This document shows, in pieces, positions 46,912 to 60,165 of a DNA stretch of 64,000 nt. The notes under the pieces were generated by a model. The model was given only the letters and a program-made list of their open reading frames with translations. It was not told the DNA's origin and searched no databases. How positions within the stretch are numbered: the stretch's first letter is position 1; each line of letters opens with the position of its first letter. The stretch spans positions 1 to 64,000 of the forward strand of contig CAVRCI010000012.1 of the NCBI GenBank assembly GCA_963719495.1, written 5' to 3'. A program made the translations under genes and the position numbers. Source of the DNA: an uncultured Verrucomicrobiae bacterium (GTDB taxonomy: Bacteria; Verrucomicrobiota; Verrucomicrobiia; Chthoniobacterales; JAATET01).

Positions 46912-48150
46912 TCACAAAAGCACCCCCACCACGGTAGCCGAAAGGTAACAAGCCAGCACCCCACCCACCATCGCGCGAAGCCCGAGCCGCGCCAAATCCC
47001 CCCGCCGCTCCGGCACCAGCGACCCGATCCCGCCGATCTGAATCGCAATGCTCGACAAATTCGCGAACCCGCACAGCGCGTAAGCCGTTAGAATAAAGCT
47101 TCGTTCGTCCATCGTGTCCTTCAGCTGCGCGAGACTCAGATACCCAATGAACTCATTGAGAACGATCCGCTCGCCCAGCACCTGACCCGCCACCGCGCAA
47201 TCCTCCGCCCGGATCCCGATCACCCAGGCAAACGGCCAGTTCAACCACCCCAAAAACTGCTGCAACGTCACCGGCTCCGCCACCCCCAGCGCCGCCTGCG
47301 GAGCCGTCACCAACGCGTTGAGCAGCGCCACGATCGCCACGAACGCGATCAGCATCGCGATTACGTTGATCGCCAGCATCATCCCATCGCCCGCCCCCCG
47401 GCACAGCGCATCCAGCCCGTTCGAAGTCGTCCGCTCCACCTCCGCCGAAGCCTCCGCCCCCGTCTCACTCTCCTCCGTCTCCGGCAGCATGATCTTCGCG
47501 ATGATCAATCCAGCCGGCGCACTCAGCACCGACGCCGTCAGCAGATGCCCCGCGTCCACCCCCAGCTGCGCGTAAATCGCAAACACGCTGCTCGCCACCG
47601 TCGCGAACCCGCACGTCATGAGCGCCATCAGTTCACTCTGCGTCATCCCCTTCAAATAAGGCCGAATGAGCAACGGAGCCTCCGTCTGCCCGACAAAAAT
47701 GTTACTCGCCGCCGCCAACGTCTCGCTCCCACTCGTCCGCAGAAGTTTCCGCATCACCCAGGCCAACCCGTGGACCACTTTCTGCAAAATCCCGTAGTGG
47801 TAAAGCGCCGCCGAAATCGACGAAACCACCACGATCACCGCCGTCACCGTGACCGCGAAGACGTAGGCATTCGGGCCAAAAGCCGCCCCCAACTTCGCCC
47901 CATCCGCCAACGGCCCGAAGACCATTTGCGCCCCCACGTTCGCAAACTCCGCGATCTTCGCCACCCCCAACCGCGCCCCGCCGAAGACCGTTTTCCCCAA
48001 ATCCGTTTTCAGAATCAGCACCGCCAAAACGAACTGCAACCCGAGCCCCCAGACCACCGTCCGCCACGGAAACAACCGCTTGTGCCGCGACAACGCCCAA
48101 GCCAACCCCAGCATCACCACCAATCCCAGAAGACTCGTTAACTGCAACAT
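46912..48150 (-). CDS. Concentrative nucleoside transporter (NupC/CNT family)
   Basis: WRTVVWGLGLQ, NIFVGQTEAPL, LNEFIGY, LCGFANLSSIAIQIGG. Confidence 0.93.
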   Translation of the reverse strand: MLQLTSLLGLVVMLGLAWALSRHKRLFPWRTVVWGLGLQFVLAVLILKTDLGKTVFGGARLGVAKIAEFANVGAQMVFGPLADGAKLGAAFGPNAYVFAVTVTAVIVVVSSISAALYHYGILQKVVHGLAWVMRKLLRTSGSETLAAASNIFVGQTEAPLLIRPYLKGMTQSELMALMTCGFATVASSVFAIYAQLGVDAGHLLTASVLSAPAGLIIAKIMLPETEESETGAEASAEVERTTSNGLDALCRGAGDGMMLAINVIAMLIAFVAIVALLNALVTAPQAALGVAEPVTLQQFLGWLNWPFAWVIGIRAEDCAVAGQVLGERIVLNEFIGYLSLAQLKDTMDERSFILTAYALCGFANLSSIAIQIGGIGSLVPERRGDLARLGLRAMVGGVLACYLSATVVGVLL

Positions 48151-48183
48151 CCCCACCCCTTTAAGCAATTCCCATTCCCCAAA

Positions 48184-48241
48184 CCGCCACCCCTTGCAAA
48201 ACTCCGATGCGGCCGCATCGGAGTTTTGCAAGGGGTGGCGG
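48184..48241. repeat. Perfect 58-bp palindrome in a divergent promoter region
   Basis: CCGCCACCCCTTGCAAAACTCCGATGCGG|CCGCATCGGAGTTTTGCAAGGGGTGGCGG, with no loop and no mismatch. Confidence 0.95.
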
Positions 48242-48299
48242 CTGATTCGACGTCGGGCTGGCCAAATTTCGCCCACCCCGCCTAGTCTCCCGCCGCGCC

Positions 48300-48926
48300 A
48301 TGCAAGAAGCCTTCACGAATTGGATGACCGAGAGCATGACGTGGATCGAGGCCAGCGGCTGGGTGGGCTGGTTCGGGTTCATCGTCCTTTACGCCATCAC
48401 GTGCGTCTTCCTGCTCCCCGGCTCCCTCCTCACCGTCGGCGCCGGAGCCGCCTACGGCTTCTGGTCCGGCACCCTCCTCGTCACCATCGCCTCCGTCGCC
48501 GGAGCCGCCCTCAACTTCGCCACCAGCCGCTACCTCGTCCACAATTGGTTCCAGCGAAAATTCGCCCACAGCCCGAAATTCCGCGCCCTCGACCGAGCCA
48601 TCGCCCACGGCGGCTGGCGCATCGTCCTCCTCAGCCGCCTCTCCCCGGTCCTCCCCCACAGCCTCGTCAGCTACGCCTGCGGACTCACGACCATCTCCAT
48701 GACCCGATTCACCCTCGCATCGTGGATCGGTTTCATCCCCATCAGCGCCGCCTACGCCTACACCGGAGCCCTATTGGGAAAAATCGCGAGAGCCAAAGCC
48801 GGCCTCCCCCACGGAATCGAATCCTGGATCCTCTACGGCCTGGGCCTGGCAGCCACAATCGCCGTAACCGTCTATTCAGCAAAAATCGCCAACGAAGCCC
48901 TCCGAACAAAGGTCGACATCGAGTAG
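48300..48926 (+). CDS. TVP38/TMEM64 (VTT/DedA-like) membrane protein
   Basis: LPGSLLTVGAGAAYG, F..SRY, LSRLSPVLP, YACGLT. Confidence 0.92.
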   Translation: MQEAFTNWMTESMTWIEASGWVGWFGFIVLYAITCVFLLPGSLLTVGAGAAYGFWSGTLLVTIASVAGAALNFATSRYLVHNWFQRKFAHSPKFRALDRAIAHGGWRIVLLSRLSPVLPHSLVSYACGLTTISMTRFTLASWIGFIPISAAYAYTGALLGKIARAKAGLPHGIESWILYGLGLAATIAVTVYSAKIANEALRTKVDIE

Positions 48927-49070
48927 AGCGGGGAGCGCACGCGTCCCCGCGTGCGAGATGCGGCGTCCCGCCGCATCAAGCCCGGCAACCCGCGCCAGCG
49001 GGAGCCGCCCGCCCTCCACCAGTCACCAATCACCAATCACCAATCACGCCGTAACCGGCCCCTCCACCAA

Positions 49071-51020
49071 TCACGCGACAAACTGCCGGTGCAAAATCTG
49101 CAAACACAACAAGTGGTTAAGCAAAGCATCCTTCCGCACCAGCGAAGCCGAGTCGCCATCCGCCCGATACCCGTCCAAAAACGCCCCAACCCGCCCCGCG
49201 TCGAACAACCCAGCCTCCCGCACGCTCCCCTCGTCCAGATACTTGTCGGTCAAAGCCCGCACCGCTTGCTGCTTTTTCACGTCGGTATGCGCCGGCGGAG
49301 CCATGAACGAAAACTTCTCCCGCTTATACAACACCTCCGGCAACACCCCCCGCACCGCCTCCCGCAGCACGTGCTTTTCGATGTTCCCCTTGATTCGCAA
49401 ATTCGGTGGCACGTGAACCGCCGCCTCCGCCACGTGGTGATCGAGAAACGCCGGTCGCGACTCCATCGAGTTCGCCATATCCACCCGGTCGCCGCCCCAG
49501 TTGAGAATCTGACTCTCCAGCATCGTCTTGCTCCACGTGTATTGCGACTTATCCAGCGGATGCCGCCCGCGCACCATCGACGGGTCGATTTCGCCCGCGA
49601 TCGCCGCCACCGGATCGTAAGCCCCGATCTCCTCGGCCGCGTCATCACTCAGCAAAGGCCGCGCGATCCCCAGCGTCGCGATCCAACTCTGAATCCATGC
49701 CGGCGTGAACCCGCACAAATCCTCCCAGGCTGGATGCGTCTCCGCCTGCTCGGAAAGCAAAGCCCCCTTGAAGATCGCGTTGAATTTCTCGAGCGCCGCC
49801 TCGTATTCCCGCCGCACGCTTGCCGGCTCGTCCGCCAGTCCGTGTTGAAACATGTCGCGCTTGAAAAACGCGTAGCCGCCGAAAAGCTCGTCCGCCCCCT
49901 CGCCCGTGATCACCGTCTTGTAGCCCGCGTCCCGCACGTGCTGGCTCATGCAATACTTCGCCACGCCCAGCGTGTTGTAGAACGACCGTTCCGTGTGCCA
50001 CACCGTCCGCTCGTAATTCTCGCCGTAAAGCTCCGCCGCCTGCAGCTTGATCACGTCGTGATCCGCCCCGACGCTCGCCGCCATCTCGCGCGCGATCACC
50101 GATTCATCGTAGTCGTCGCTGTCGAAGCTAATGGTAAACGCCTTCACCGGACTTTGCATCGCACCCGAAGCCATCCCGAGGATGCAACAGCTGTCGATGC
50201 CGCCCGAAAGATAACACCCCACCGGCACGTCCGCCTCGAGCCGATGCCCGACGGCCTCGACCAATTCCTTGCGAATCGTCGCCACGTGGTCCGCTTCCGA
50301 GCGCCCTGGGTCCCGCGCGTCCGCCTCCGGAAATTCCAGGTCCCAATACCGCCGCTCCTCCACGTCCAGCCGGTCGCCCCGCCGCTTCACGATCACCATG
50401 TGCCCCGGCTTCACGGCCTTGATGCCCTCGAACGCACTGGTCCCGAGCACCATCGTTTGCATCATCTGATTCAGCGCCGCCCGCCGATCCATCCGGCACG
50501 GAACGTCCGGATGCGCGAGCAGCACCTTGACCTCTGACCCAAAGTAAATCCCCTTCTCGGAAACGTGGTAAAACAAAGGCCGCACCCCGAAGCGATCCCG
50601 CACCAAGGCTAAACGATCCTCCTTCCGATCATACAGTGCGAAGGCAAATTCCCCCCGAATCTGCGGCATGAGATCCAGCCCATACTTGCGATACAACGGC
50701 ATCACCAACTCGCTGTCCGACTTCGTCACGAATCGCTCGCCCTCCGTCATCAGCGTCGACCGGATCCGCTTGTAATCGTAGAGCTCCCCGTTCATCACCA
50801 TCGACAAATCGTCGTCGCCGCTGGACAGCGGCTGACAACCCGTGTGCAGATCGACGATCGTCAACCGCGCGTGCCCCAGAGCCAAGCCCAGCTTGGGATC
50901 TACCTTCGTCCCGCGCCCATCCGGCCCACGGTGACGCTGCACGTCGATCATCCGGTTGAGGGCGCGTTCGTCGTCGGGCGCGAGGCCCGTCGGTTTGAAA
51001 AATCCGGCAATTCCGCACAT
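49071..51020 (-). CDS. Asparagine synthase-like glutamine amidotransferase (AsnB family)
   Basis: MCGIAG (Ntn Cys), HRGPD, HARL.IVD, NGELY, RDRFGVRPL, LSGGIDS, TGEGADELFGGY. Confidence 0.95.
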   Translation of the reverse strand: MCGIAGFFKPTGLAPDDERALNRMIDVQRHRGPDGRGTKVDPKLGLALGHARLTIVDLHTGCQPLSSGDDDLSMVMNGELYDYKRIRSTLMTEGERFVTKSDSELVMPLYRKYGLDLMPQIRGEFAFALYDRKEDRLALVRDRFGVRPLFYHVSEKGIYFGSEVKVLLAHPDVPCRMDRRAALNQMMQTMVLGTSAFEGIKAVKPGHMVIVKRRGDRLDVEERRYWDLEFPEADARDPGRSEADHVATIRKELVEAVGHRLEADVPVGCYLSGGIDSCCILGMASGAMQSPVKAFTISFDSDDYDESVIAREMAASVGADHDVIKLQAAELYGENYERTVWHTERSFYNTLGVAKYCMSQHVRDAGYKTVITGEGADELFGGYAFFKRDMFQHGLADEPASVRREYEAALEKFNAIFKGALLSEQAETHPAWEDLCGFTPAWIQSWIATLGIARPLLSDDAAEEIGAYDPVAAIAGEIDPSMVRGRHPLDKSQYTWSKTMLESQILNWGGDRVDMANSMESRPAFLDHHVAEAAVHVPPNLRIKGNIEKHVLREAVRGVLPEVLYKREKFSFMAPPAHTDVKKQQAVRALTDKYLDEGSVREAGLFDAGRVGAFLDGYRADGDSASLVRKDALLNHLLCLQILHRQFVA

Positions 51021-51027
51021 AAGAAGA

Positions 51028-52116
51028 TTAGCTAAGTGGAAGATTCTCGGGCAGCCGATTGCACCTGCCCATCACCGCCGTCAGCAGCGCCTGACGAATG
51101 AAGACCGCCCCGTGCGCCTGCGACCAGTAGAGATTGTGCGGCGTCCGATCCAGACTCGTGTCCAGCTCCTCGAGCCTCGCAAGCGGATGCAGAATGACCG
51201 CGCCATCCTTGAGTTCGCTGTCCGCGTCGAGGCGGAACCTGGAGTCCAGATTTTTGTAACCATCGCCGACCTGCACGATGGAGTTCATGTAGATCACGTC
51301 CAATTCCGGAAGGCAGTTTTCGATGTCGTTCGTGATCTCGGACTCGAAACTCGCCGCCGCGATGTCGTTCGCCAGCTCCTCGCCGAACGGATCGGCCATC
51401 TCCGAAACGAACGTGATCTTTTCGATGTGTTCCTGAAAGAGCAACGCCATGTGAACGAAACTCTTCACCGCCCGCATGCTCCCCGGCGTCCCGAGCACCC
51501 CAATCCGGAGCCGCTCCGAGACCGGCTCGCGCTTGGCTAATTCAGGACGCCACTTCAGCAGCGCATACCAATCCGCCATGGCCTGAGTCGGGTGGTCGCC
51601 CGTGCCGTTTCCGGCGTTGATCAACGGCAGGCGCAGATTTTTCATGATCCGCTCCGGCGCGTCCGCTTCGGTGTGCCGCATGATCACGCAATCGCCGTAG
51701 GCGTTGAACATTTCGCCGATGTCCTCGAGCGATTCCCCCTTCTTCACTCCCGTCGTCTTCCCGTCCGGGATGCTAATGATTCGCCCGTCGAGCCGCAGCA
51801 CCGCGCTCTCGAACGACAACCGCGTCCGCGTGCTCGCCTCGAAGAACGCCGTGATCACGATGTATTTGTCCAACGGCCGGTGTGGCCCAATTTCAATCGC
51901 CTCCAACACCGAGGCCAGCTTGCAAAGCTCGACGATCTCCGTCCGCGAGAATTGCTTCACCGACAGCACGCTGCGAAACGCCATCCCCTGCAGCACCTCG
52001 AGGTCGATGTTCGTCCGCCGAAAGAGCGAATTTGCCTCCGGGTGCAAAGACAGCGACTCCGGCGGCGGCGCGAGCACCTCGAGCAACCGATTCGGTTTGA
52101 ACGTCGGCGCGTCCAT
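51028..52116 (-). CDS. Aspartate-carbamoyltransferase-like transcarbamylase, substrate probably not aspartate
   Basis: FFEASTRTRLSF, KGESLED, IMRH and HPTQ are retained. The second-substrate motifs are altered (DVIYMNSIV, HPLA). Confidence 0.88.
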   Translation of the reverse strand: MDAPTFKPNRLLEVLAPPPESLSLHPEANSLFRRTNIDLEVLQGMAFRSVLSVKQFSRTEIVELCKLASVLEAIEIGPHRPLDKYIVITAFFEASTRTRLSFESAVLRLDGRIISIPDGKTTGVKKGESLEDIGEMFNAYGDCVIMRHTEADAPERIMKNLRLPLINAGNGTGDHPTQAMADWYALLKWRPELAKREPVSERLRIGVLGTPGSMRAVKSFVHMALLFQEHIEKITFVSEMADPFGEELANDIAAASFESEITNDIENCLPELDVIYMNSIVQVGDGYKNLDSRFRLDADSELKDGAVILHPLARLEELDTSLDRTPHNLYWSQAHGAVFIRQALLTAVMGRCNRLPENLPLS

Positions 52117-52235
52117 CACCAAACGCGTCCTTTCCGGTGATCCCGCCAGATCATCGCGATCAGCGTCACCGCGCCAGCCGACGTCCAGATCAGCGCGGTC
52201 CAAATGAGAATTTCGACGAAGGTGAGTGCAAACAT
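52116..52235 (-). CDS. 39-aa single-TM microprotein (not in the ORF track)
   Basis: MFALTFVEILIWTALIWTSAGAVTLIAMIWRDHRKGRVW*. It starts 4 nt after the symporter stop, and its TGA overlaps the next ATG (TGATG). Confidence 0.75.
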   Translation of the reverse strand: MFALTFVEILIWTALIWTSAGAVTLIAMIWRDHRKGRVW

Positions 52236-52239
52236 GGCG

Positions 52240-53661
52240 TTAGTGTTCGTTGAGGGTCTTCCAATCGAATGGGTCGGGTCGCAAAGCCGTCGTCACGAGC
52301 ACCGTCACCATCGACACCGCCGCGCTGATCAGCGACGCCGAGAACCAACCAATCTGATAATACGCGATCAACCCGATCACCGACCCCAGCAACATCGCCG
52401 CCGTCGCACCCGCTCGCGACGTCCGCGGAAAATACAACCCGGACACGATTGGCCAGATCGTGCTCGCGACCAGCGGCCCCGAAAGAAAGAGCACCGTAAT
52501 GAGATCGCCCACGTTCGGCAGACAGATCCCCCAAGTCAGCACCCCCAACCCCACGATCACCCAGGTCGAAGCTCGGCGCACCGTCGCCTCGCTGGCCGCC
52601 GGATTGAACGCCTTCCGGTAAATGTCCTCCGTCACCAGATCCGCCGTCGCCGCCAGCAGGCTGTCGATGCTCGAAGCCAGCGAACAGAACAGCACGATGA
52701 ACACCAGGATCGAACCCACTCCCCCCAGCACCTGACTCGCCACCAGCGGCCCGACCATGTCCGGGTCCGCCGCGTTGATCCCCAACGGCCCCGCGCAAAG
52801 CCCGATGAACCCCGCCGCAATCGGAATCGGGAACCACAGCACCCCCGAAATAAGAAACGCCTTCAGCGGCACCCCCTTCCGCATGGCAAAGGCCCGACTC
52901 CACCACACGTTGTTGTGAAAGACCTCGCCGAACCCGAAGAACAGATTGTTGAACAGCGCCAGCAGCGCCACCGGCATGAATACATGCAGCAAAGTCGGCT
53001 GATCCGCCGAGATCGACGTGTAAACCGCCTCGACGTCGATCCGCATGAGCACGACCACACCGACCACCACGATCCCGACGAGAATGATGACGCTCTGAAT
53101 AAAATCCGTCCCGATCACCGCGTAAAGCCCGCCGAAGAGCGTGTAGGTAATGCAAACGAACAAAATCGCCGACATCCCGTATTCGTAAGGAATCCCCGAC
53201 AGCGCCTGCAGAAATTTCCCGCCTGCCATTGCCATGCTCACCAGCCACGCCATCGAATAAACCAGCGAAATCACCAAAAACAGCCCCCAGGCCACCCGCC
53301 CGAACCGCAGCCGCACGAAGTCACCGCTCGTGTAGCCATTCGGCATCAAGTCGCGAATCCTGTGCGCCATCGGCGCAAACAGAAACAACCCGAAACTCGC
53401 CGTCGAATAAGCCAGCATCCCCCAGATCCCCATCTTCATCGCGAAGACCGGCGCGAGCATCACCGTGCTCGACGTCACCCACGTCGCCATCGCCGTCGCC
53501 GCCGAGAGAGCCAACCCGACGTTCCGCCCCGCGAGCATGAACCCATCCAGATTGACCGCCTTCTTCCCCCAATAAACCCCCAACCCGATCCAGATCACGC
53601 CAAAGACCGCGAGCAGCAGATAGCCCATTCCAGGATCGAGCACGGAGCTTTGCAAATTCAT
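52240..53661 (-). CDS. Sodium:solute symporter (SSS; DUR3/urea-transporter-like)
   Basis: About 13 TMs; FMLAGRNVG, YTLFGGLYAVIGTDFIQ, SLASSIDSLLAA. Confidence 0.92.
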   Translation of the reverse strand: MNLQSSVLDPGMGYLLLAVFGVIWIGLGVYWGKKAVNLDGFMLAGRNVGLALSAATAMATWVTSSTVMLAPVFAMKMGIWGMLAYSTASFGLFLFAPMAHRIRDLMPNGYTSGDFVRLRFGRVAWGLFLVISLVYSMAWLVSMAMAGGKFLQALSGIPYEYGMSAILFVCITYTLFGGLYAVIGTDFIQSVIILVGIVVVGVVVLMRIDVEAVYTSISADQPTLLHVFMPVALLALFNNLFFGFGEVFHNNVWWSRAFAMRKGVPLKAFLISGVLWFPIPIAAGFIGLCAGPLGINAADPDMVGPLVASQVLGGVGSILVFIVLFCSLASSIDSLLAATADLVTEDIYRKAFNPAASEATVRRASTWVIVGLGVLTWGICLPNVGDLITVLFLSGPLVASTIWPIVSGLYFPRTSRAGATAAMLLGSVIGLIAYYQIGWFSASLISAAVSMVTVLVTTALRPDPFDWKTLNEH

Positions 53662-54140
53662 CAGACGAGTTCCTCCCCGGCCTGCTGCCGCCGAAATCCC
53701 CTCACCACGGTCGACACCGTCAGCCCAAACACCGTCAATCCGACGCCCAGGAGCGTCCAAACCTTCCAAGCCGCTGGGTATTCCACGAGCACGTCCAGCG
53801 TCTCCGACCAAGGACCCCCAACCGCCCGCACCCGGAACGAATGCGTCCCATCCGGCAGCCCCGAAGCAAAGAACGCCAAATCCGGCCCCACGTAGCGAAC
53901 CTTCTCACCTTCAACGACTTCGTAATCCACCGCCCCCGCGACCGCCAACCAATTGAGCAGAACGTGGCCCTCCCCCGCGACCACCGGCTCCGTCATTTCC
54001 CAGCGCGGAGCCTCCAGAGCCAACGCCGAACCAATCAGCAAAAACGCAACAAAAACTCGAATGGGGATCGAAAAAGCGATGCTCCCACCGTGAAAAACGA
54101 ACTCCCGAACATCAAGCAAAAGCCGGGAGACAGGGAGCAC
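53661..54140 (-). CDS. Small exported FN3-like protein with C-terminal TM anchor (start uncertain)
   Basis: Signal-like FVAFLLIGSALA; LNW..V.GA..YEV...SGLPDGTHSFRVRA FN3 pattern; C-terminal TM; its stop overlaps the SSS ATG. Confidence 0.7.
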   Translation of the reverse strand: MLPVSRLLLDVREFVFHGGSIAFSIPIRVFVAFLLIGSALALEAPRWEMTEPVVAGEGHVLLNWLAVAGAVDYEVVEGEKVRYVGPDLAFFASGLPDGTHSFRVRAVGGPWSETLDVLVEYPAAWKVWTLLGVGLTVFGLTVSTVVRGFRRQQAGEELV

Positions 54141-54295
54141 ACCCGTCCCGGGTGTGAGCTTCGGCGTCCCCGCCGAAGCCTCGTTCCAAAACGCGAAGCG
54201 TCACTTCCCCCTTCACCCGCATCCATTCGCGTCCATTCGCGTGTTTAGCGGGTCCCTCACCCGATTTGCCAACCTCCCCGCCCACCTGTTAACCA

Positions 54296-55585
54296 TTGGC
54301 GGTGCCACCCGAAAACACCCGCGCCACCCCGCTCGCCGACCTCCGCGTCGACCCGAAGCGCCTCCGCGAAGACCTCCGCACCCTCTCCGCCTTCGGTTAC
54401 AACGACACCGACCACGGCATCTACCGCATGGCGTTCACCGAGGCCGACCTCGCCGCCCGCCATTGGCTGCAGGACGAAATGCGCGCCCTCGGCATGGCCG
54501 TCCGCATCGACGGAGCCGCCAACGTCATCGGCCACTGGCCGCCCCACGACACCCGGCCCGCCGTTATCCTCGGTTCCCACACCGACACCGTCCCCTGCGG
54601 CGGCCACCTCGACGGCAACCTCGGCGTCCTCTGCGGCCTCGAAGCCGCCCGCGTCCTCATCGAAGCCGACGTCCAGCTCGACCGCCCCATCGAAGTCATC
54701 TCCTTCTCCGACGAAGAGGGTCGTTTCGGCGGCATGCTCGGATCCGAAGCCTTCACCGGTCGCCTCACCCCCGAGCGCCTCCTCGGAGCCATCGATTTAA
54801 CCGGCACCCGCCTCGCCGACGCGATGATCGCTCGCGGCCTCGAACCCACCGCCGCCCTCGACGCCCGCCGCGAACCCTCCAGTATCCACGCCTTCCTCGA
54901 ACTCCACATCGAGCAAGGCCCCGTCCTCGACGCCGCCCGCAAGCAGCTCGGCATCGTCGACCAGATCACCGGCCTCTTCCGCTGGTCCGCCCGCCTCTTC
55001 GGCAAACCCAACCACGCCGGCACCACCCCCATGAACCTCCGCCAGGACGCCTTTCTGGGCCTGGCCGAATTCGCCAACGAAATCCCTCGCGTCCTCGAGG
55101 AAAACGGCAGCGACCGCAGCCGCGCCACCATCGGCAACGTCGAACTCACCCCCGGCGCCGCGAACACCATCCCGGGCTGCGCGGAATTCTCGCTCGACGT
55201 CCGCGACACCGACCCCGACACCCTCGAAGAGCTCTCCCGCGCCTTCCGCAAGGCCCTCTCCGCCATCGCCCGCCGTCACGACCTCCGCTTCGAATTCGAC
55301 GAAGTCTCCCGCATCGCCCCCCGGCCCTGCGCCCCCGCCGTCGTCGACGCCCTCCGCCGCCAAGCCGAGCGGCTCGAGACCACCTTCGAAGTCATGCCCA
55401 GCGGCGCCGCCCACGATTCCCAGCTTCTCGCCGAGATTTGTCCCGTCGGCATGATCTTCGTCCCCAGCCGCGACGGCCAGAGCCACTCGCCCGCCGAATG
55501 GACCGCCTGGCAGGACGTCGAAGCCGGTGCCAACGTCCTCCTCCAAACCGCACTCGAACTCACCCGCACTGAAATCGAACGATGA
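54296..55585 (+). CDS. M20 Zn-dependent N-carbamoyl-L-amino-acid amidohydrolase (hydantoinase/carbamoylase family amidase)
   Basis: GSHTDTV, LDGNLG, DEEG, ELHIEQGP, NHAGTTPM, SGAAHD, SHSPAE. Confidence 0.93.
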   Translation: MAVPPENTRATPLADLRVDPKRLREDLRTLSAFGYNDTDHGIYRMAFTEADLAARHWLQDEMRALGMAVRIDGAANVIGHWPPHDTRPAVILGSHTDTVPCGGHLDGNLGVLCGLEAARVLIEADVQLDRPIEVISFSDEEGRFGGMLGSEAFTGRLTPERLLGAIDLTGTRLADAMIARGLEPTAALDARREPSSIHAFLELHIEQGPVLDAARKQLGIVDQITGLFRWSARLFGKPNHAGTTPMNLRQDAFLGLAEFANEIPRVLEENGSDRSRATIGNVELTPGAANTIPGCAEFSLDVRDTDPDTLEELSRAFRKALSAIARRHDLRFEFDEVSRIAPRPCAPAVVDALRRQAERLETTFEVMPSGAAHDSQLLAEICPVGMIFVPSRDGQSHSPAEWTAWQDVEAGANVLLQTALELTRTEIER

Positions 55586-56319
55586 AAATTACCGACGCCA
55601 CCGACCGCGATCCGCTCCTCGACCTCTACAAAAGCTCCCTCGGCGAGGAAAACCCAGCCCACCACTGGATGCTGGCCCGCCAGCAGACCGCGCTCCTTTG
55701 CATCGACATGCAATACCTCGACGCCGCCCGCGGCCACGGCATCTTCCGCGACGCCACCTCCTCCGGCGTCCCGCTCGAGGACCAGGAATACTACTTCTCC
55801 ACCCTCGAAGGCCGCGTCATCCCCCGCCTCCGCCGCCTCCAGGACACCTTCCGCCGCGCCGAACTCGAAGTCATCCACGTCCGCATCCAGGCCCTCACCG
55901 CCGACGGACGCGACCGTTCCAAGGGCCACAAACGCCTCGGCGTCCTCGCCGGCCCCGGCACCCGCGAAGCCGATTTCCTCGAAGCCGTCGCCCCCCAAGG
56001 CGACGAAATCGTCATCAACAAGACCGCCAGCGGCGTCTTCTCCGCCACGAACATCAATTTCGTCCTGAAAAATCTCGGCATTACCGCCGTCTACGTCGCC
56101 GGCGTCTACACCAACGAATGCGTGGAAACGACGATCCGCGACGCCTGCGACCTCGGCTACCTCGTCACCATGGTCGACGACTGCTGCACGACCGTGACCC
56201 CCGAACTCCAACGCGCCTCCATCGCCGTCCTCCGCGACCGCTACGCCCGCATCCTCTCCAGCGACGACGCCATCGCCGAGATCCAGTCCATCGAGGCGGA
56301 ACGGCAACCCGCCGCGTAA
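55582..56319 (+). CDS. Isochorismatase-family cysteine hydrolase (amidase)
   Basis: Intact D-K-C triad: IDMQ, INKTASGVF, YTNECVETT. ATGA overlap with the M20 gene. Confidence 0.92.
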   Translation: MKITDATDRDPLLDLYKSSLGEENPAHHWMLARQQTALLCIDMQYLDAARGHGIFRDATSSGVPLEDQEYYFSTLEGRVIPRLRRLQDTFRRAELEVIHVRIQALTADGRDRSKGHKRLGVLAGPGTREADFLEAVAPQGDEIVINKTASGVFSATNINFVLKNLGITAVYVAGVYTNECVETTIRDACDLGYLVTMVDDCCTTVTPELQRASIAVLRDRYARILSSDDAIAEIQSIEAERQPAA

Positions 56320-56644
56320 TCAGACCGAGCGAAGCAAAGCCATCCTCCAAAAAAACTGTCATGTTGAGCGAAGCGAAGCATCTCTGGCTTCTCAGGCGTG
56401 ACGGCCCGCAACCAGAAACGAGCCAGAGATATTTCGCTCCGCTCAATATAACAGGTTTTGGAAAAAGGCCGTCTTCCCAACCAGGGTCAATCCTCTCCTC
56501 CACGCCTCACTTTCCAATCGACGCCGCCCTTCCTCCACCCAGCATCACCCCACCCCCCCGGAAAAGAGATTCACGCCCACGCCGCCTCGTGCGTATCCTT
56601 CGACAGATACCAGCAACCGCAAATTTTTACTTAAAAGCCATCCC

Positions 56645-57766
56645 ATGCCCACCATCGCCAAAGGACTCGAAGGAATCATCGCAAACTCGACCTCGCTCAG
56701 CGAAGTCATGGGAGCCGAGGGCATCCTCATCTACTCCGGCTACAACATCAACGACCTCGCCGGAAACGTCACTTTCGAGGAAATCGTCCACCTCCTCTGG
56801 CGCGGACACCTCCCCAACCGCGCCGAACTCGACGCCCTCACCGCGGAACTCCGCGCCCAGCGTGAACTCCCCGCCGGTGTTATCGAATTTCTCGAAACCG
56901 CCCCCAAAGACGCGGGCCCGATGGACGTCATCCGCACCGCCGTCTCCATGCTCGGCCTCTACGACCACGTCACCGGCGACGACGCCGAGGCCAACCAACA
57001 CCGCGCTGTCAGCATCACGTCGAAGATGGGCGTGATCGCCGCCTACTACCACCGCGCCCGCCAGGGTCTGGAGCTCCCCGCCGTCCGCGACGACCTCGGC
57101 GAAGCCGCCCACTTCCTCTACCTCCTCAACGGCGAGGAACCCACCGCCGAGATGGAACGAACCCTCGACGTCGCCTACGTCCTCCACGCCGACCACGGCA
57201 TGAACGCCTCGACCTTCTCCGCCCGCGTCACCATCGCCACCCTCAGCGACATTTTCTCCGCCATCACCTCCGCCATCGGCACCCTCAAGGGTCCCCTCCA
57301 CGGCGGGGCCAACGAAGGCGTCATCCACATGCTCCAGGAGATCGGCAGCGTCGACGCCGTCGACGCCTGGGTCGACGACGCCCTCGAAAACAAAAAGAAG
57401 ATCATGGGCATCGGCCACCGCGTTTACAAAACGCTCGACCCCCGCGCCCCCCACCTCCGCACCATGGCCATCAAGCTCTGCGAACAACTCGGCGAGCAGA
57501 AGTGGATCAAGATGAGCGAGCGGATCGCCGAGATCATGCGCGAGAAGAAGGAACTCAACGCCAACGTCGATTTCTACTCCGCCACGGTCTACTACTCGCT
57601 CGGCGTCCCGACCGACATGTTCACGCCGATCTTCGCGATTTCCCGCGCCGCGGGTTGGACCGCCCACGTCCTCGAGCAGCTCTCCGACAACCGCCTCTAC
57701 CGCCCCCTCAGCGAATACGTCGGCCCCGAAGTCGGCAAGAAAGTCGTCCCCATCGACGAACGGTAG
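56645..57766 (+). CDS. gltA: Citrate synthase (type I/short form)
   Basis: KGLEGI, LHADHGMNASTF, GPLHGGAN, IMGIGHRVY, NVDFYS. Confidence 0.93.
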   Translation: MPTIAKGLEGIIANSTSLSEVMGAEGILIYSGYNINDLAGNVTFEEIVHLLWRGHLPNRAELDALTAELRAQRELPAGVIEFLETAPKDAGPMDVIRTAVSMLGLYDHVTGDDAEANQHRAVSITSKMGVIAAYYHRARQGLELPAVRDDLGEAAHFLYLLNGEEPTAEMERTLDVAYVLHADHGMNASTFSARVTIATLSDIFSAITSAIGTLKGPLHGGANEGVIHMLQEIGSVDAVDAWVDDALENKKKIMGIGHRVYKTLDPRAPHLRTMAIKLCEQLGEQKWIKMSERIAEIMREKKELNANVDFYSATVYYSLGVPTDMFTPIFAISRAAGWTAHVLEQLSDNRLYRPLSEYVGPEVGKKVVPIDER

Positions 57767-57777
57767 GTTGCGGGTGG

Positions 57778-57857
57778 GTCGAGAGACGAGGGTCGAGGGT
57801 CGAGCGCTAATGAGTTCACCCTCAGGCCCTCGACTCTCGACGCTCGACCCTCGACTC
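57778..57857. repeat. Inverted (GTCGAGG)n / (CCTCGAC)n heptamer arrays
   Basis: GTCGAGAGACGAGGGTCGAGGGTCGAG ... CCCTCGACTCTCGACGCTCGACCCTCGAC. Confidence 0.7.
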
Positions 57858-57912
57858 ATCAAAAGGCCCGATTCTCGTTCGGTCTCACGGAAAACCCTGC
57901 TAGCGTCCGCCC

Positions 57913-60165
57913 ATGAATCCATCCCTGCTCTCCGACGCGGACTATTATCCGTTGGTCGAAGCCCGGCACGACGACCCCTTCCGCATCCTCGGCATCCGCG
58001 GCACCGATAAGGCCAAAATCGCCCGCGTCTTCCGCCCCGACGCCAAGTCCGTCACCCTCGTCGAATCCGGCGGATCCGAGCGCAAGATCGAGTTGAATCG
58101 CGCCGGCGACGGCGGCGTCTTCGAAGCCGAGCTCGGCAAGGACGCCCCCATCGGCTATCACCTCGATTACACCGGATTCAACGGCGAGACTTGGTCCCAG
58201 CTCGACCCCTACGCCTTCGGCCCCGTCCTCGGCGAGATGGACATCTACCTCTTCGGCGAGGGCACCCATTACGACGTTTACAAGAAGCTCGGCGCCCACC
58301 CGATCGAGCACGACGGTGTTCGCGGCGTCCACTTCGCCGTCTGGGCCCCAAATGCCCAGCGCGTCAGCGTCGTCGGCGACCTCAACCACTGGGACGGTCG
58401 CGTCCACCCCATGCGGAAGATTCTCTCCGCTGGCATCTGGGAAATTTTCATCCCTGAGCTCGGCGAAGGTGACCACTACAAATTCGAAATCCGCGGCCCG
58501 CAGGGCGACGTCAACCTCAAGACCGATCCCTTCGCGACCTACGCCCAGCACGGCACCTCCACCGGCTGCATGGTCTTCGACCTCGACCGCTACAAGTGGG
58601 ACGACGGCGACTGGATGAAGGCCCGCGAAACCCGCGACCATCTCAATTCCCCCATGAGCGTCTACGAGGTGCACCTCGGCTCCTGGCAGCGCGTGAGCGA
58701 GGATGGCAATCGCGAGCTCAGCTACCGCGAACTCGCCGACCGCCTCATCCCCTACACCAAGGAAATGGGCTTCACCCACCTCGAGCTCATGCCCGTGATG
58801 GAGCATCCGTTCGACGGCTCCTGGGGCTACCAGGTCACGAATTACTACGCGCCCACCAGCCGCTTCGGTAATCCCGACGAATTCCGCAACTTCGTGGACC
58901 GCTGCCACCAGGAAGGCATCGGCGTCATCCTCGACTGGGTCCCCGGCCATTTCCCCAAGGACGCCCACGGCCTCGCGAAATACGACGGCACCTGCCTCTA
59001 CGAGCACGAGGACCCGCGCCTCGGCGAGCACATGGATTGGGGCACCCTCATTTTCAACTACGGGCGCAACGAGGTGAAAAACTTCCTCATCGGCAACGCC
59101 CTCTACTGGATGGACGAATACCACGTCGACGGCCTCCGCGTGGACGCGGTCGCGTCGATGCTCTACCTCGACTACTCCCGCAAAGCCGGCGAATGGGTGC
59201 CCAACCGCTTCGGCGGACGCGAGAACCTCGAAGCCGTCGATTTCCTCAAGCGCTGCAACGAAGTCTGCTACGAGCGCTTCCCCGGCATCGTGACCATCGC
59301 CGAGGAATCCACCTCCTACCCCGGCGTCTCCAAGCCGACCTACCTCGGCGGCCTCGGCTTCGGCTTCAAGTGGAACATGGGCTGGATGAACGACTCCCTG
59401 CGCTACATCGCGCTCGACCCCATCCACCGCCGCTACCACCAGAGCGAGATCACCTTCTCGATGGTCTACGCCTTCTCCGAGCACTTCATGCTCGTCCTCA
59501 GCCACGACGAAGTCGTCCACGGCAAGGGCTCGATGATCGGGAAAATGCCCGGCGACGATTGGCAGAAGTTCGCCAATCTCCGCATGTTCATCGCCTGGAT
59601 GTGGGGCCACCCCGGCAAAAAGCTCATCTTCCAGGGCATGGAATTCGGCCAATTCGCCGAGTGGAACCACGCCCGCAGCATCGACTGGCACCTCAAGGAC
59701 TCCCACCTCAACGCCGGCATGAGCCGCCTCGTGCAGCACCTCAACTGGCTCTACCGCAGCGAACCCGCCCTCTTCGACCAAGACGATTCCTACGACGGAT
59801 TCGAGTGGATCGACTTCAGCGACGCCGACAACACCGTCTGGTCCTTCATGCGCAAGTCGAAGGACGGCGATAAGCTCGTCTTTATCGTCAACGCCACCCC
59901 GGTGGTCCGGCCAAATTACCGCGTCGGCGTGCCACTCGGCGGATTCTACGCGGAAATTCTCAACACCGACGCCGGCAACTACGGCGGCAGCAACGTCGGG
60001 AACTACGGCGGCAAATACGCCGATCAGCAACGCTGGCAGGACCGCGACCACTCGATCCTCGTCGACCTCCCACCCCTCGCCGTTGTCGCCTTCAAATACC
60101 GGGACAATGCCCCCTCCACCCCGGCACTCGAAGCGACCCCAAAACCGAAGGCCCTCGAGACCTGA
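57913..60165 (+). CDS. glgB: 1,4-alpha-glucan branching enzyme
   Basis: FAVWAPNA, YEVHLGSW, SWGYQ, LDWVPGHF, LRVDAVASM, IAEES, LSHDEVVHGK. Confidence 0.98.
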   Translation: MNPSLLSDADYYPLVEARHDDPFRILGIRGTDKAKIARVFRPDAKSVTLVESGGSERKIELNRAGDGGVFEAELGKDAPIGYHLDYTGFNGETWSQLDPYAFGPVLGEMDIYLFGEGTHYDVYKKLGAHPIEHDGVRGVHFAVWAPNAQRVSVVGDLNHWDGRVHPMRKILSAGIWEIFIPELGEGDHYKFEIRGPQGDVNLKTDPFATYAQHGTSTGCMVFDLDRYKWDDGDWMKARETRDHLNSPMSVYEVHLGSWQRVSEDGNRELSYRELADRLIPYTKEMGFTHLELMPVMEHPFDGSWGYQVTNYYAPTSRFGNPDEFRNFVDRCHQEGIGVILDWVPGHFPKDAHGLAKYDGTCLYEHEDPRLGEHMDWGTLIFNYGRNEVKNFLIGNALYWMDEYHVDGLRVDAVASMLYLDYSRKAGEWVPNRFGGRENLEAVDFLKRCNEVCYERFPGIVTIAEESTSYPGVSKPTYLGGLGFGFKWNMGWMNDSLRYIALDPIHRRYHQSEITFSMVYAFSEHFMLVLSHDEVVHGKGSMIGKMPGDDWQKFANLRMFIAWMWGHPGKKLIFQGMEFGQFAEWNHARSIDWHLKDSHLNAGMSRLVQHLNWLYRSEPALFDQDDSYDGFEWIDFSDADNTVWSFMRKSKDGDKLVFIVNATPVVRPNYRVGVPLGGFYAEILNTDAGNYGGSNVGNYGGKYADQQRWQDRDHSILVDLPPLAVVAFKYRDNAPSTPALEATPKPKALET

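Follow-up and report, generated by a model that had tools for sequence, protein, structure and literature searches.

A transcarbamylase-AsnB gene cluster as the best candidate so far for bacterial synthesis, import and recycling of N-carbamoyl-glutamine amide

In the N-acetylglutaminylglutamine amide (NAGGN) pathway of Ngg and AsnO, the alpha-amine of glutamine is blocked and the carboxylate is then amidated by an AsnB-family enzyme, yielding a neutral solute. N-carbamoyl-glutamine amide (CGA) was reportedly first described by Galinski and Oren in 1991, from a single bacterium, as a salt-protecting solute. It is accumulated by Ectothiorhodospira marismortui, alias E. mobilis (PMC1224877). In picocyanobacteria, a gene cluster termed an eCAG (ureP/DUR3-membrane protein-pyrB2-asnB-pydC-Ntn hydrolase) has been read as pyrimidine synthesis and tracks warm waters depleted in nitrogen and phosphorus (Dore et al. 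2023, PMC10119275). Here we analysed a stretch of 64,000 nucleotides (C12:1-64000, hereafter the window) from an uncultured Verrucomicrobiae bacterium with a genome of 4.54 Mb, 98.6% complete. It carries a cluster of seven genes encoding an FN3-domain membrane protein (FN3-TM), an SSS symporter, a small membrane peptide, a transcarbamylase (TC), an AsnB-like protein, an M20 N-carbamoylase and a cysteine amidase. An earlier reading of the sequence, the original prediction, had seen in them an undescribed pathway that makes, imports and recycles an N-carbamoyl amino-acid amide. Our data point to the cluster as the best candidate so far for bacterial CGA synthesis, import and recycling, and we consider it fairly probable that its enzymes convert glutamine into CGA and later recycle the product. 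"Undescribed" stands in one sense, as a literature search made without most subscription papers or the 1991 original found no genes assigned to CGA, but the arrangement has not gone wholly unnoticed, the picocyanobacterial cluster having the same layout.

The cluster resembles the NAGGN pathway without being a member of it, and is a new version of the osmolyte design in which an amine is blocked and a carboxylate amidated. Here the amine would be blocked by a transcarbamylase, without acetyltransferase or ligase, and the AsnB-like protein fails the NAGGN model TIGR03104 (300.5, cut-off 570.1). No GNAT/ATP-grasp Ngg gene was found in the window region or among the recurrent neighbours of 80 long loci (at least 7 kb), and NAGGN synthesis was ranked low. 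True AsnO is encoded separately from the cluster in the carriers G152, G458 and G412. Compared by layout, the eCAG has in common with the window a DUR3-like symporter, a small membrane protein, a second pyrB, an asnB and an N-carbamoylase; it differs by an Ntn-hydrolase-domain gene in the slot of the cysteine amidase, and lists no FN3 gene. Orthology is hinted at only by an Atlas cluster in which Cyanobacteriota predominate (score 0.98). If the two are orthologous, the replacement of the cysteine amidase by an Ntn hydrolase speaks for an amidase function at this place in the cluster.

The TC has the fold of Escherichia coli PyrB (about 30% identity), an aspartate carbamoyltransferase (ATCase). 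We aligned 359 homologues (the listed matches, with one self-match excluded) and numbered the positions after E. coli PyrB. The carbamoyl-phosphate site, S52-T53-R54-T55, K84, R105, H134 and Q137, is kept in all of them and in the window TC, and R167 in 358/359. By contrast, R229 occurs in none (S, A or T instead), T228 is replaced by N in 359/359, and the PyrB aspartate side-chain motif R229-x-Q231-x-E233-R234 is absent throughout; P268 is also changed to A. The genome's own PyrB retains the motif. In ATCase, we take R167 to contact the alpha-carboxylate of aspartate, and R229 and Q231 its beta-carboxylate; with R167 kept and R229/Q231 lost, the TC is therefore expected to carbamoylate an alpha-amino acid whose carboxylate is free and whose side chain is unlike that of aspartate. 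The pocket change seems to fit a larger or uncharged side chain, and with a large cationic residue gone and an Asn gained, glutamine would be a suitable substrate.

The window TC matched 17 NCBIfam models of carbamoyltransferases and passed none of them, including those for PyrB (TIGR00670, 174 against a cut-off of 237; PRK00856, 170 against 263) and for ornithine or putrescine carbamoyltransferases (TIGR00658, 67 against 281; PRK00779, 88 against 306; TIGR04384, 55 against 500), and has YMNSI and HPLA in place of the DxxxSMG and HCLP motifs. An ornithine or putrescine carbamoyltransferase was rejected on these low scores and absent motifs. PyrB identity was rejected as well, on the failed cut-offs, the lost aspartate motif and the presence of a separate PyrB (C2:738247) and ArgF (on C14) in the genome. 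The pyrB gene has pyrR-like and pyrC-like neighbours (assigned by sequence motifs, not by hidden Markov models) and CarB is encoded on C1, in agreement with the original prediction that no pyrI, pyrC or carAB lies nearby and that the locus does not serve pyrimidine synthesis, the TC not being the only PyrB of the genome. In a tree of 48 rows, the TC family branched apart from PyrB (support 89/90, not starred) and contained subclade A, that of the window (100/100), and subclade B, which is proteobacterial and has a core of 11 rows (99/97). A sister clade of TC (P0138, P0139, P0145, P0146, P0149, P0153, P0155 and P0161; about 357 aa, support 100/100) has a degenerate STRT motif in the members read and is probably a non-catalytic paralogue. 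One of its loci, L205:1480-2631 (G276:C2:413232-414290), is next to a MarC-like gene and apart from the cluster, of which its genome has an intact copy as well. P0123-P0127 represent more 50%-identity clusters of the non-PyrB TC family, in which position 228 is N and position 229 is either small or hydrophobic.

The AsnB-like protein is a class II glutamine amidotransferase of the AsnB family, with a Cys glutaminase and an SGGxDS adenylation domain; its N-terminal glutaminase Cys and SGGIDS motif are conserved across homologues. It passed TIGR01536, failed the AsnB model PRK09431 (272, cut-off 499), and has the hydroxyamidotransferase 7YLZ as closest PDB match. Gene order was followed in 111 loci found via the TC (set 1, in which counts use only loci with enough flank) and in 36 long loci chosen from genomes of class and family samples, mostly of subclade B (set 2). 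AsnB directly follows TC in 90/91 testable loci of set 1 and adjoins it in 35/36 loci of set 2, many of which form a single co-directional operon of all genes. The genes are conserved with one another, as the original prediction required. In L051, M20 directly follows TC. Among the 400 genomes of the class sample, an AsnB orthologue (at least 52% identity) is present in 23 of the 24 TC carriers, the gene of the 24th being interrupted by a contig end, versus none of the 376 non-carriers, four of which have only paralogues of 36-39%. One genome, G458, keeps orthologues of all four enzymes at four distant sites of one contig (L169, L187). We conclude that TC and AsnB are a near-invariant core, and that neither the transport module nor the hydrolase pair is a required part.

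The window contains the seven genes that had been listed (Table 1), with families borne out by Pfam and NCBIfam and the FN3 domain by predicted structure. The five junctions, read directly, are equally as described: a TGATG overlap, 4 nt, a TGATG overlap and 7 nt, and an ATGA overlap in the hydrolase pair. The FN3-TM gene has no ATG and starts somewhere within 54140-54080. GC and GC3 (GC at third codon positions) of the cluster are similar to those of the genes on either side.

Table 1. Genes of the cluster, with coordinates in the window.
Feature	Coordinates	Strand	Family or evidence
AsnB-like glutamine-dependent amidotransferase, 649 aa, begins Met-Cys	51020-49071	minus	PF13537+PF00733
TC, ATCase-like, side-chain pocket remodelled, 362 aa	52116-51028	minus	ATCase/OTCase family (Pfam/NCBIfam)
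Single-pass membrane peptide, 39 aa	52235-52116	minus	between SSS and TC genes
SSS symporter, DUR3-like, 473 aa	53661-52240	minus	PF00474
FN3-TM: N-terminal hydrophobic helix, FN3 domain, C-terminal membrane anchor	53661..54140	minus	AlphaFold/Foldseek
M20 N-carbamoylase	54296-55585	plus	TIGR01879, PRK09290
Isochorismatase-family cysteine amidase (D42, K147, C180)	55582-56319	plus	PF00857

The M20 protein passed TIGR01879 and PRK09290.1-5, its closest PDB match is the L-N-carbamoylase 3N5F (E 3e-77), and its metal-binding motifs are conserved. The N-carbamyl-glutamate amidohydrolase ErtE has the M20 family and conserved metal motifs in common with it, but the window protein falls under the cut-off of the ErtE model, its second-best in NCBIfam (397 against 520), and ergothioneine or hydantoinase genes are absent among the recurrent neighbours of the 80 long loci. 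M20 keeps the conserved R303-D304. R303 is presumably the carboxylate-binding Arg; with this residue kept, the C1 amide would therefore have to leave before the carbamoyl group. In the amidase, the D-K-C triad is invariant (61/61 aligned). The modelled fold, equally near RutB, maleamate amidase, BiuH and TrtA (Z 25-26), does not separate carboxamide from ureide hydrolases, and the bond cleaved is not fixed by it. The divergent hydrolase pair of the original prediction is present in the window, but it is an optional rather than a fixed partner: within 5.5 kb, M20 accompanies 19/33 and the amidase 18/33 loci of subclade A in set 1, and the four subclade-A genomes without adjacent hydrolases that were searched (of unassessed completeness) gave no genome-wide match above 33% identity. 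In set 2, both adjoin the synthesis genes, as part of one operon, in 34/35 long loci. As the hydrolases are absent in some carriers, they would be unnecessary for the product of TC and AsnB.

The closest PDB match of the symporter is the urea-proton symporter DUR3 (9J7C, E 1e-31, with the segment around residues 237-255 of the window's symporter included), to which it is distant, and it is tied to TC-AsnB, not to urease. It lies upstream of TC in 95/95 testable loci of set 1 and adjoins the core in 23/36 loci of set 2, the transport module being missing from the other 13/36. FN3-TM, which accompanies the symporter, lies upstream of TC in 60/63 testable loci of set 1; it has no Pfam match, an AlphaFold pLDDT of 92.5, FN3 domains as top Foldseek matches and an Atlas score of 0.94. 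A hydrophobic, Trp-terminal peptide like that of 39 aa is encoded between SSS and TC in 175/181 locus records (some genomes being counted repeatedly), indicating that the peptide is real; it is a probable accessory subunit of the symporter. We propose that the ureido solute, or urea, would be the cargo. The symporter gene that the import proposal called for is there, but of all the steps product import is the least secure, the symporter being DUR3-like and missing from Ectothiorhodospira-type operons. Urease is of no help in this matter: a match is present in 17/40 TC carriers and absent from 23/40, making co-occurrence uninformative, and none was found in the window's genome. In 7/80 long loci (L022:6045-6869, L026, L030, L102, L104, L106 and L109), MarR and FN3-TM are separated by an unassigned gene of 230-270 aa that, judged by eye, is methyltransferase-like; six of these loci are short or without nearby orthologous hydrolases. 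The window's genome has a homologue of it at C2:788854.

The original prediction had pointed to Ectothiorhodospira, and TC homologues are present in several of its species. Three TC proteins are labelled E. mobilis, under which NCBI places E. marismortui, and others E. magna, E. lacustris, E. shaposhnikovii, E. marina, Thiorhodospira sibirica, Thioalkalivibrio, Thiohalobacter and Nitrosococcus oceani. Intact operons are seen in L209 and L210. The TC of G411 is 100%, and that of G410 96%, identical to one E. mobilis-labelled TC; in both genomes the order is MarR-M20-amidase-TC-AsnB, with sucrose synthase transcribed divergently. Three OTCace_N genes were found per genome, and a NodU/CmcH-type carbamoyltransferase gene in neither. 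The other two OTCace_N genes of G411 pass the ArgF and PyrB cut-offs, its PyrB both TIGR00670 and PRK00856. TC is thus the sole spare transcarbamylase found there, and its partner belongs to a class of enzymes that amidate carboxylates. E. magna and T. sibirica both carry TC. One source describes these two species as without betaine and ectoine synthesis, and gives CGA, sucrose and NAGGN as candidate solutes of T. sibirica (PMC7824335). NAGGN stays an alternative solute for T. sibirica because three TC carriers also have AsnO.

Beyond this group, TC is patchily distributed; it was found in 24/400 genomes of the class of G001 (which we take to be Gammaproteobacteria; centre genome included), in 49/55 genomes of the family of G152, whose closest named proteins come from soda-lake or halophilic genera, in 1/300 genomes of the class of G002 (centre genome aside) and in 2/250 genomes of the window's own phylum. 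Closer to home, it is in 5/5 genomes of the own genus, in 0/11 of the rest of the family and in 0/24 of the rest of the order. The nearest TC loci are from Verrucomicrobiae, and record titles place others in Acidobacteriota, Bacteroidia, Planctomycetota, Leptospiraceae, Polyangiaceae, Krumholzibacteriota and Methylomirabilota. Named carriers include Kordiimonas, Emcibacter, Kangiella, Aliikangiella, Pleionea, Pseudidiomarina, Aliidiomarina, Pseudoalteromonas, Pelagicoccus, Haloferula, Gimibacter soli, Thiothrix nivea and Rhodomicrobium. Most named carrier genera outside the Ectothiorhodospira group are marine. No orthologous cluster was found on plasmids, where the best TC matches are PyrB (at most 33%), the best AsnB match is 41% and one SSS is distant, or on viral contigs.

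Recurrent neighbours in the 80 long loci are MarR (27), sucrose synthase (9), MscS (7), glycine/sarcosine methyltransferase (GMT; 4, of which two loci are near-duplicates) and BCCT (4). GMT-SDMT directly follows AsnB in L074, L174 and L211 and flanks the cluster in L021, and in two class-sample genomes, one Polyangiaceae locus and one locus from a metagenome, the genes directly beside the cluster are for betaine synthesis. Genome-wide, GMT is present in 10/24 TC carriers versus 3/56 evenly picked non-carriers (Fisher P 2e-4, a value overstated by the non-independence of kin and by the tendency of carrier assemblies to be larger).

These observations suggest the following scheme. TC would transfer the carbamoyl group of carbamoyl phosphate, supplied by the housekeeping CarAB, to the alpha-amino group of L-glutamine, with L-glutamate as an alternative substrate. 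The AsnB-like enzyme would then adenylate the free alpha-carboxylate and amidate it with glutamine-derived ammonia, removing the last charge. In recycling, the cysteine amidase would take off the C1 amide and M20 subsequently the carbamoyl group, to give glutamine, CO2 and ammonia, and the DUR3-like symporter, with the peptide and the FN3-anchored partner, may recapture the ureido solute. We infer all of the substrates, the order of steps, the transported molecule and the regulation by salt. The interpretation of the original prediction is supported by comparative evidence, and the refutations of it that sequence data can deliver failed.

Several points weigh against synthesis of CGA as a salt-protecting solute. 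CGA was reported from one organism only, as a minor solute (PMC3857566). Identity between the window TC and the E. mobilis-labelled one is only 45%, and the two fall in different subclades, so that the substrate of the window TC could differ; G411 has several further AsnB paralogues, and the argument by elimination is valid for TC alone. The symporter is similar to a transporter of urea, and a urea carboxylase is encoded in the window's genome. This genome is without GMT, SDMT, BCCT and sucrose synthase, and a saline habitat is not indicated for it. The sucrose-synthase linkage and much of that to MscS stem from one family, and ectC (ectoine synthase) is not enriched (1/24 carriers versus 9/56 non-carriers, P 0.27). 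Thioalkalivibrio, many of which have the cluster, have betaine as reported main solute. In T. versutus D301, a strain not established as a carrier, salt induces nitrogen assimilation, and the cluster genes are absent from a table of 20 salt-induced nitrogen genes (of 184) in PMC9062515; they are not mentioned in passages of PMC8092127 either. Our searches found no published enzyme assay, metabolite or expression data for the cluster.

Other explanations were weighed against the synthesis and recycling of CGA. The same chemistry might yield another N-carbamoyl amino-acid amide (of Asn, Ala, Gly, or Glu with one amide) as protective solute, at least in the subclade of the window. The pocket change, which excludes aspartate and leaves the substrate unnamed, is compatible with this, as are the divergence of the subclades at TC positions 162-165 and 168, their 45% identity and the equal distance of both hydrolases from several characterised enzymes. 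Yet N278, M214, R215 and a small residue at 229 are common to both subclades, AsnB orthologues are 52-65% identical across them, and CGA is the only N-carbamoyl amino-acid amide solute that we found in print; we regard such a product as unlikely, though with a real chance. Somewhat less likely still, CGA or a similar compound, with four nitrogens per molecule, would be mainly a nitrogen store or ammonia sink, made and then hydrolysed. The operons of hydrolases and synthesis genes in the long loci of the class and family samples would suit a store, as would the nutrient-depleted waters tracked by the picocyanobacterial cluster (PMC10119275) and the minor rank of CGA even in its producer (PMC3857566). 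The repeated adjacency of betaine, sucrose and MscS genes, with no recurrent nitrogen-regulation neighbours, and the carriers without hydrolases argue otherwise.

We hold it improbable that the cluster is a catabolic scavenging system, in which the symporter would import urea or a ureide, the hydrolases degrade it, TC run in reverse to carbamoyl phosphate and AsnB make asparagine. Its conserved core consists of TC and an ATP-consuming AsnB, while the transporter and the hydrolases are each lost in some lineages; carbamate kinase-like genes are found in just 5/41 carriers, none above cut-off, and a plain asparagine synthetase would leave the strict TC-AsnB coupling unexplained. These facts have to be set against the DUR3 similarity, the urea carboxylase of the window's genome, the urease of some carriers, the biuret and triuret hydrolases among the nearest structures of the amidase and the TIGR01536 match of AsnB. 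The least probable explanation by our estimate, in favour of which are ATCase being the nearest family and the published proposal for the picocyanobacterial asnB-pyrB2-pydC (PMC10119275), is an alternative pyrimidine synthesis: the R229 and Q231-E233-R234 residues are missing in every aligned TC homologue, a distinct PyrB is present in 5/5 genomes examined, and no dihydroorotase occurs among the recurrent neighbours.

For CGA, an orphan solute since 1991, the cluster gives a testable two-enzyme hypothesis. If right, it would define a new transcarbamylase specificity and correct thousands of "aspartate carbamoyltransferase" and "asparagine synthase" annotations, explain how Ectothiorhodospiraceae without betaine and ectoine cope with salt, and reinterpret a niche-linked cluster of marine Synechococcus and some Prochlorococcus. 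The broadest version, to which we give slightly less than an even chance, is that the cluster is the missing CGA pathway with a new family of glutamine transcarbamylases, and CGA a widespread nitrogen-rich osmolyte made by about 6% of the Gammaproteobacteria sampled, by members of six or more further phyla and by most warm-water marine Synechococcus. This would make CGA an overlooked part of the dissolved organic nitrogen in the sea, and bacterial proteins annotated as DUR3 urea transporters would in many cases import it.

The flanks of the cluster (46912-48926 and 56645-60165) are unremarkable and encode a NupC-type nucleoside transporter, a VTT-domain protein, a citrate synthase and a glycogen branching enzyme-like gene, none of which recurs at distant loci. 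Scans for promoters and terminators stayed at chance level (0 versus 1.0 and 8 versus 9.0). Three intergenic repeat families with many genome copies, REP-like and one of them a 39-bp inverted repeat, occupy 48930-49065, 54133-54260 and 56340-56460. Elsewhere in the genome, C9:53565-54078 holds a partial, frameshifted M20 copy (76-80% protein identity across residues 49-220), which adjoins a gene reading like a REP-associated tyrosine transposase.

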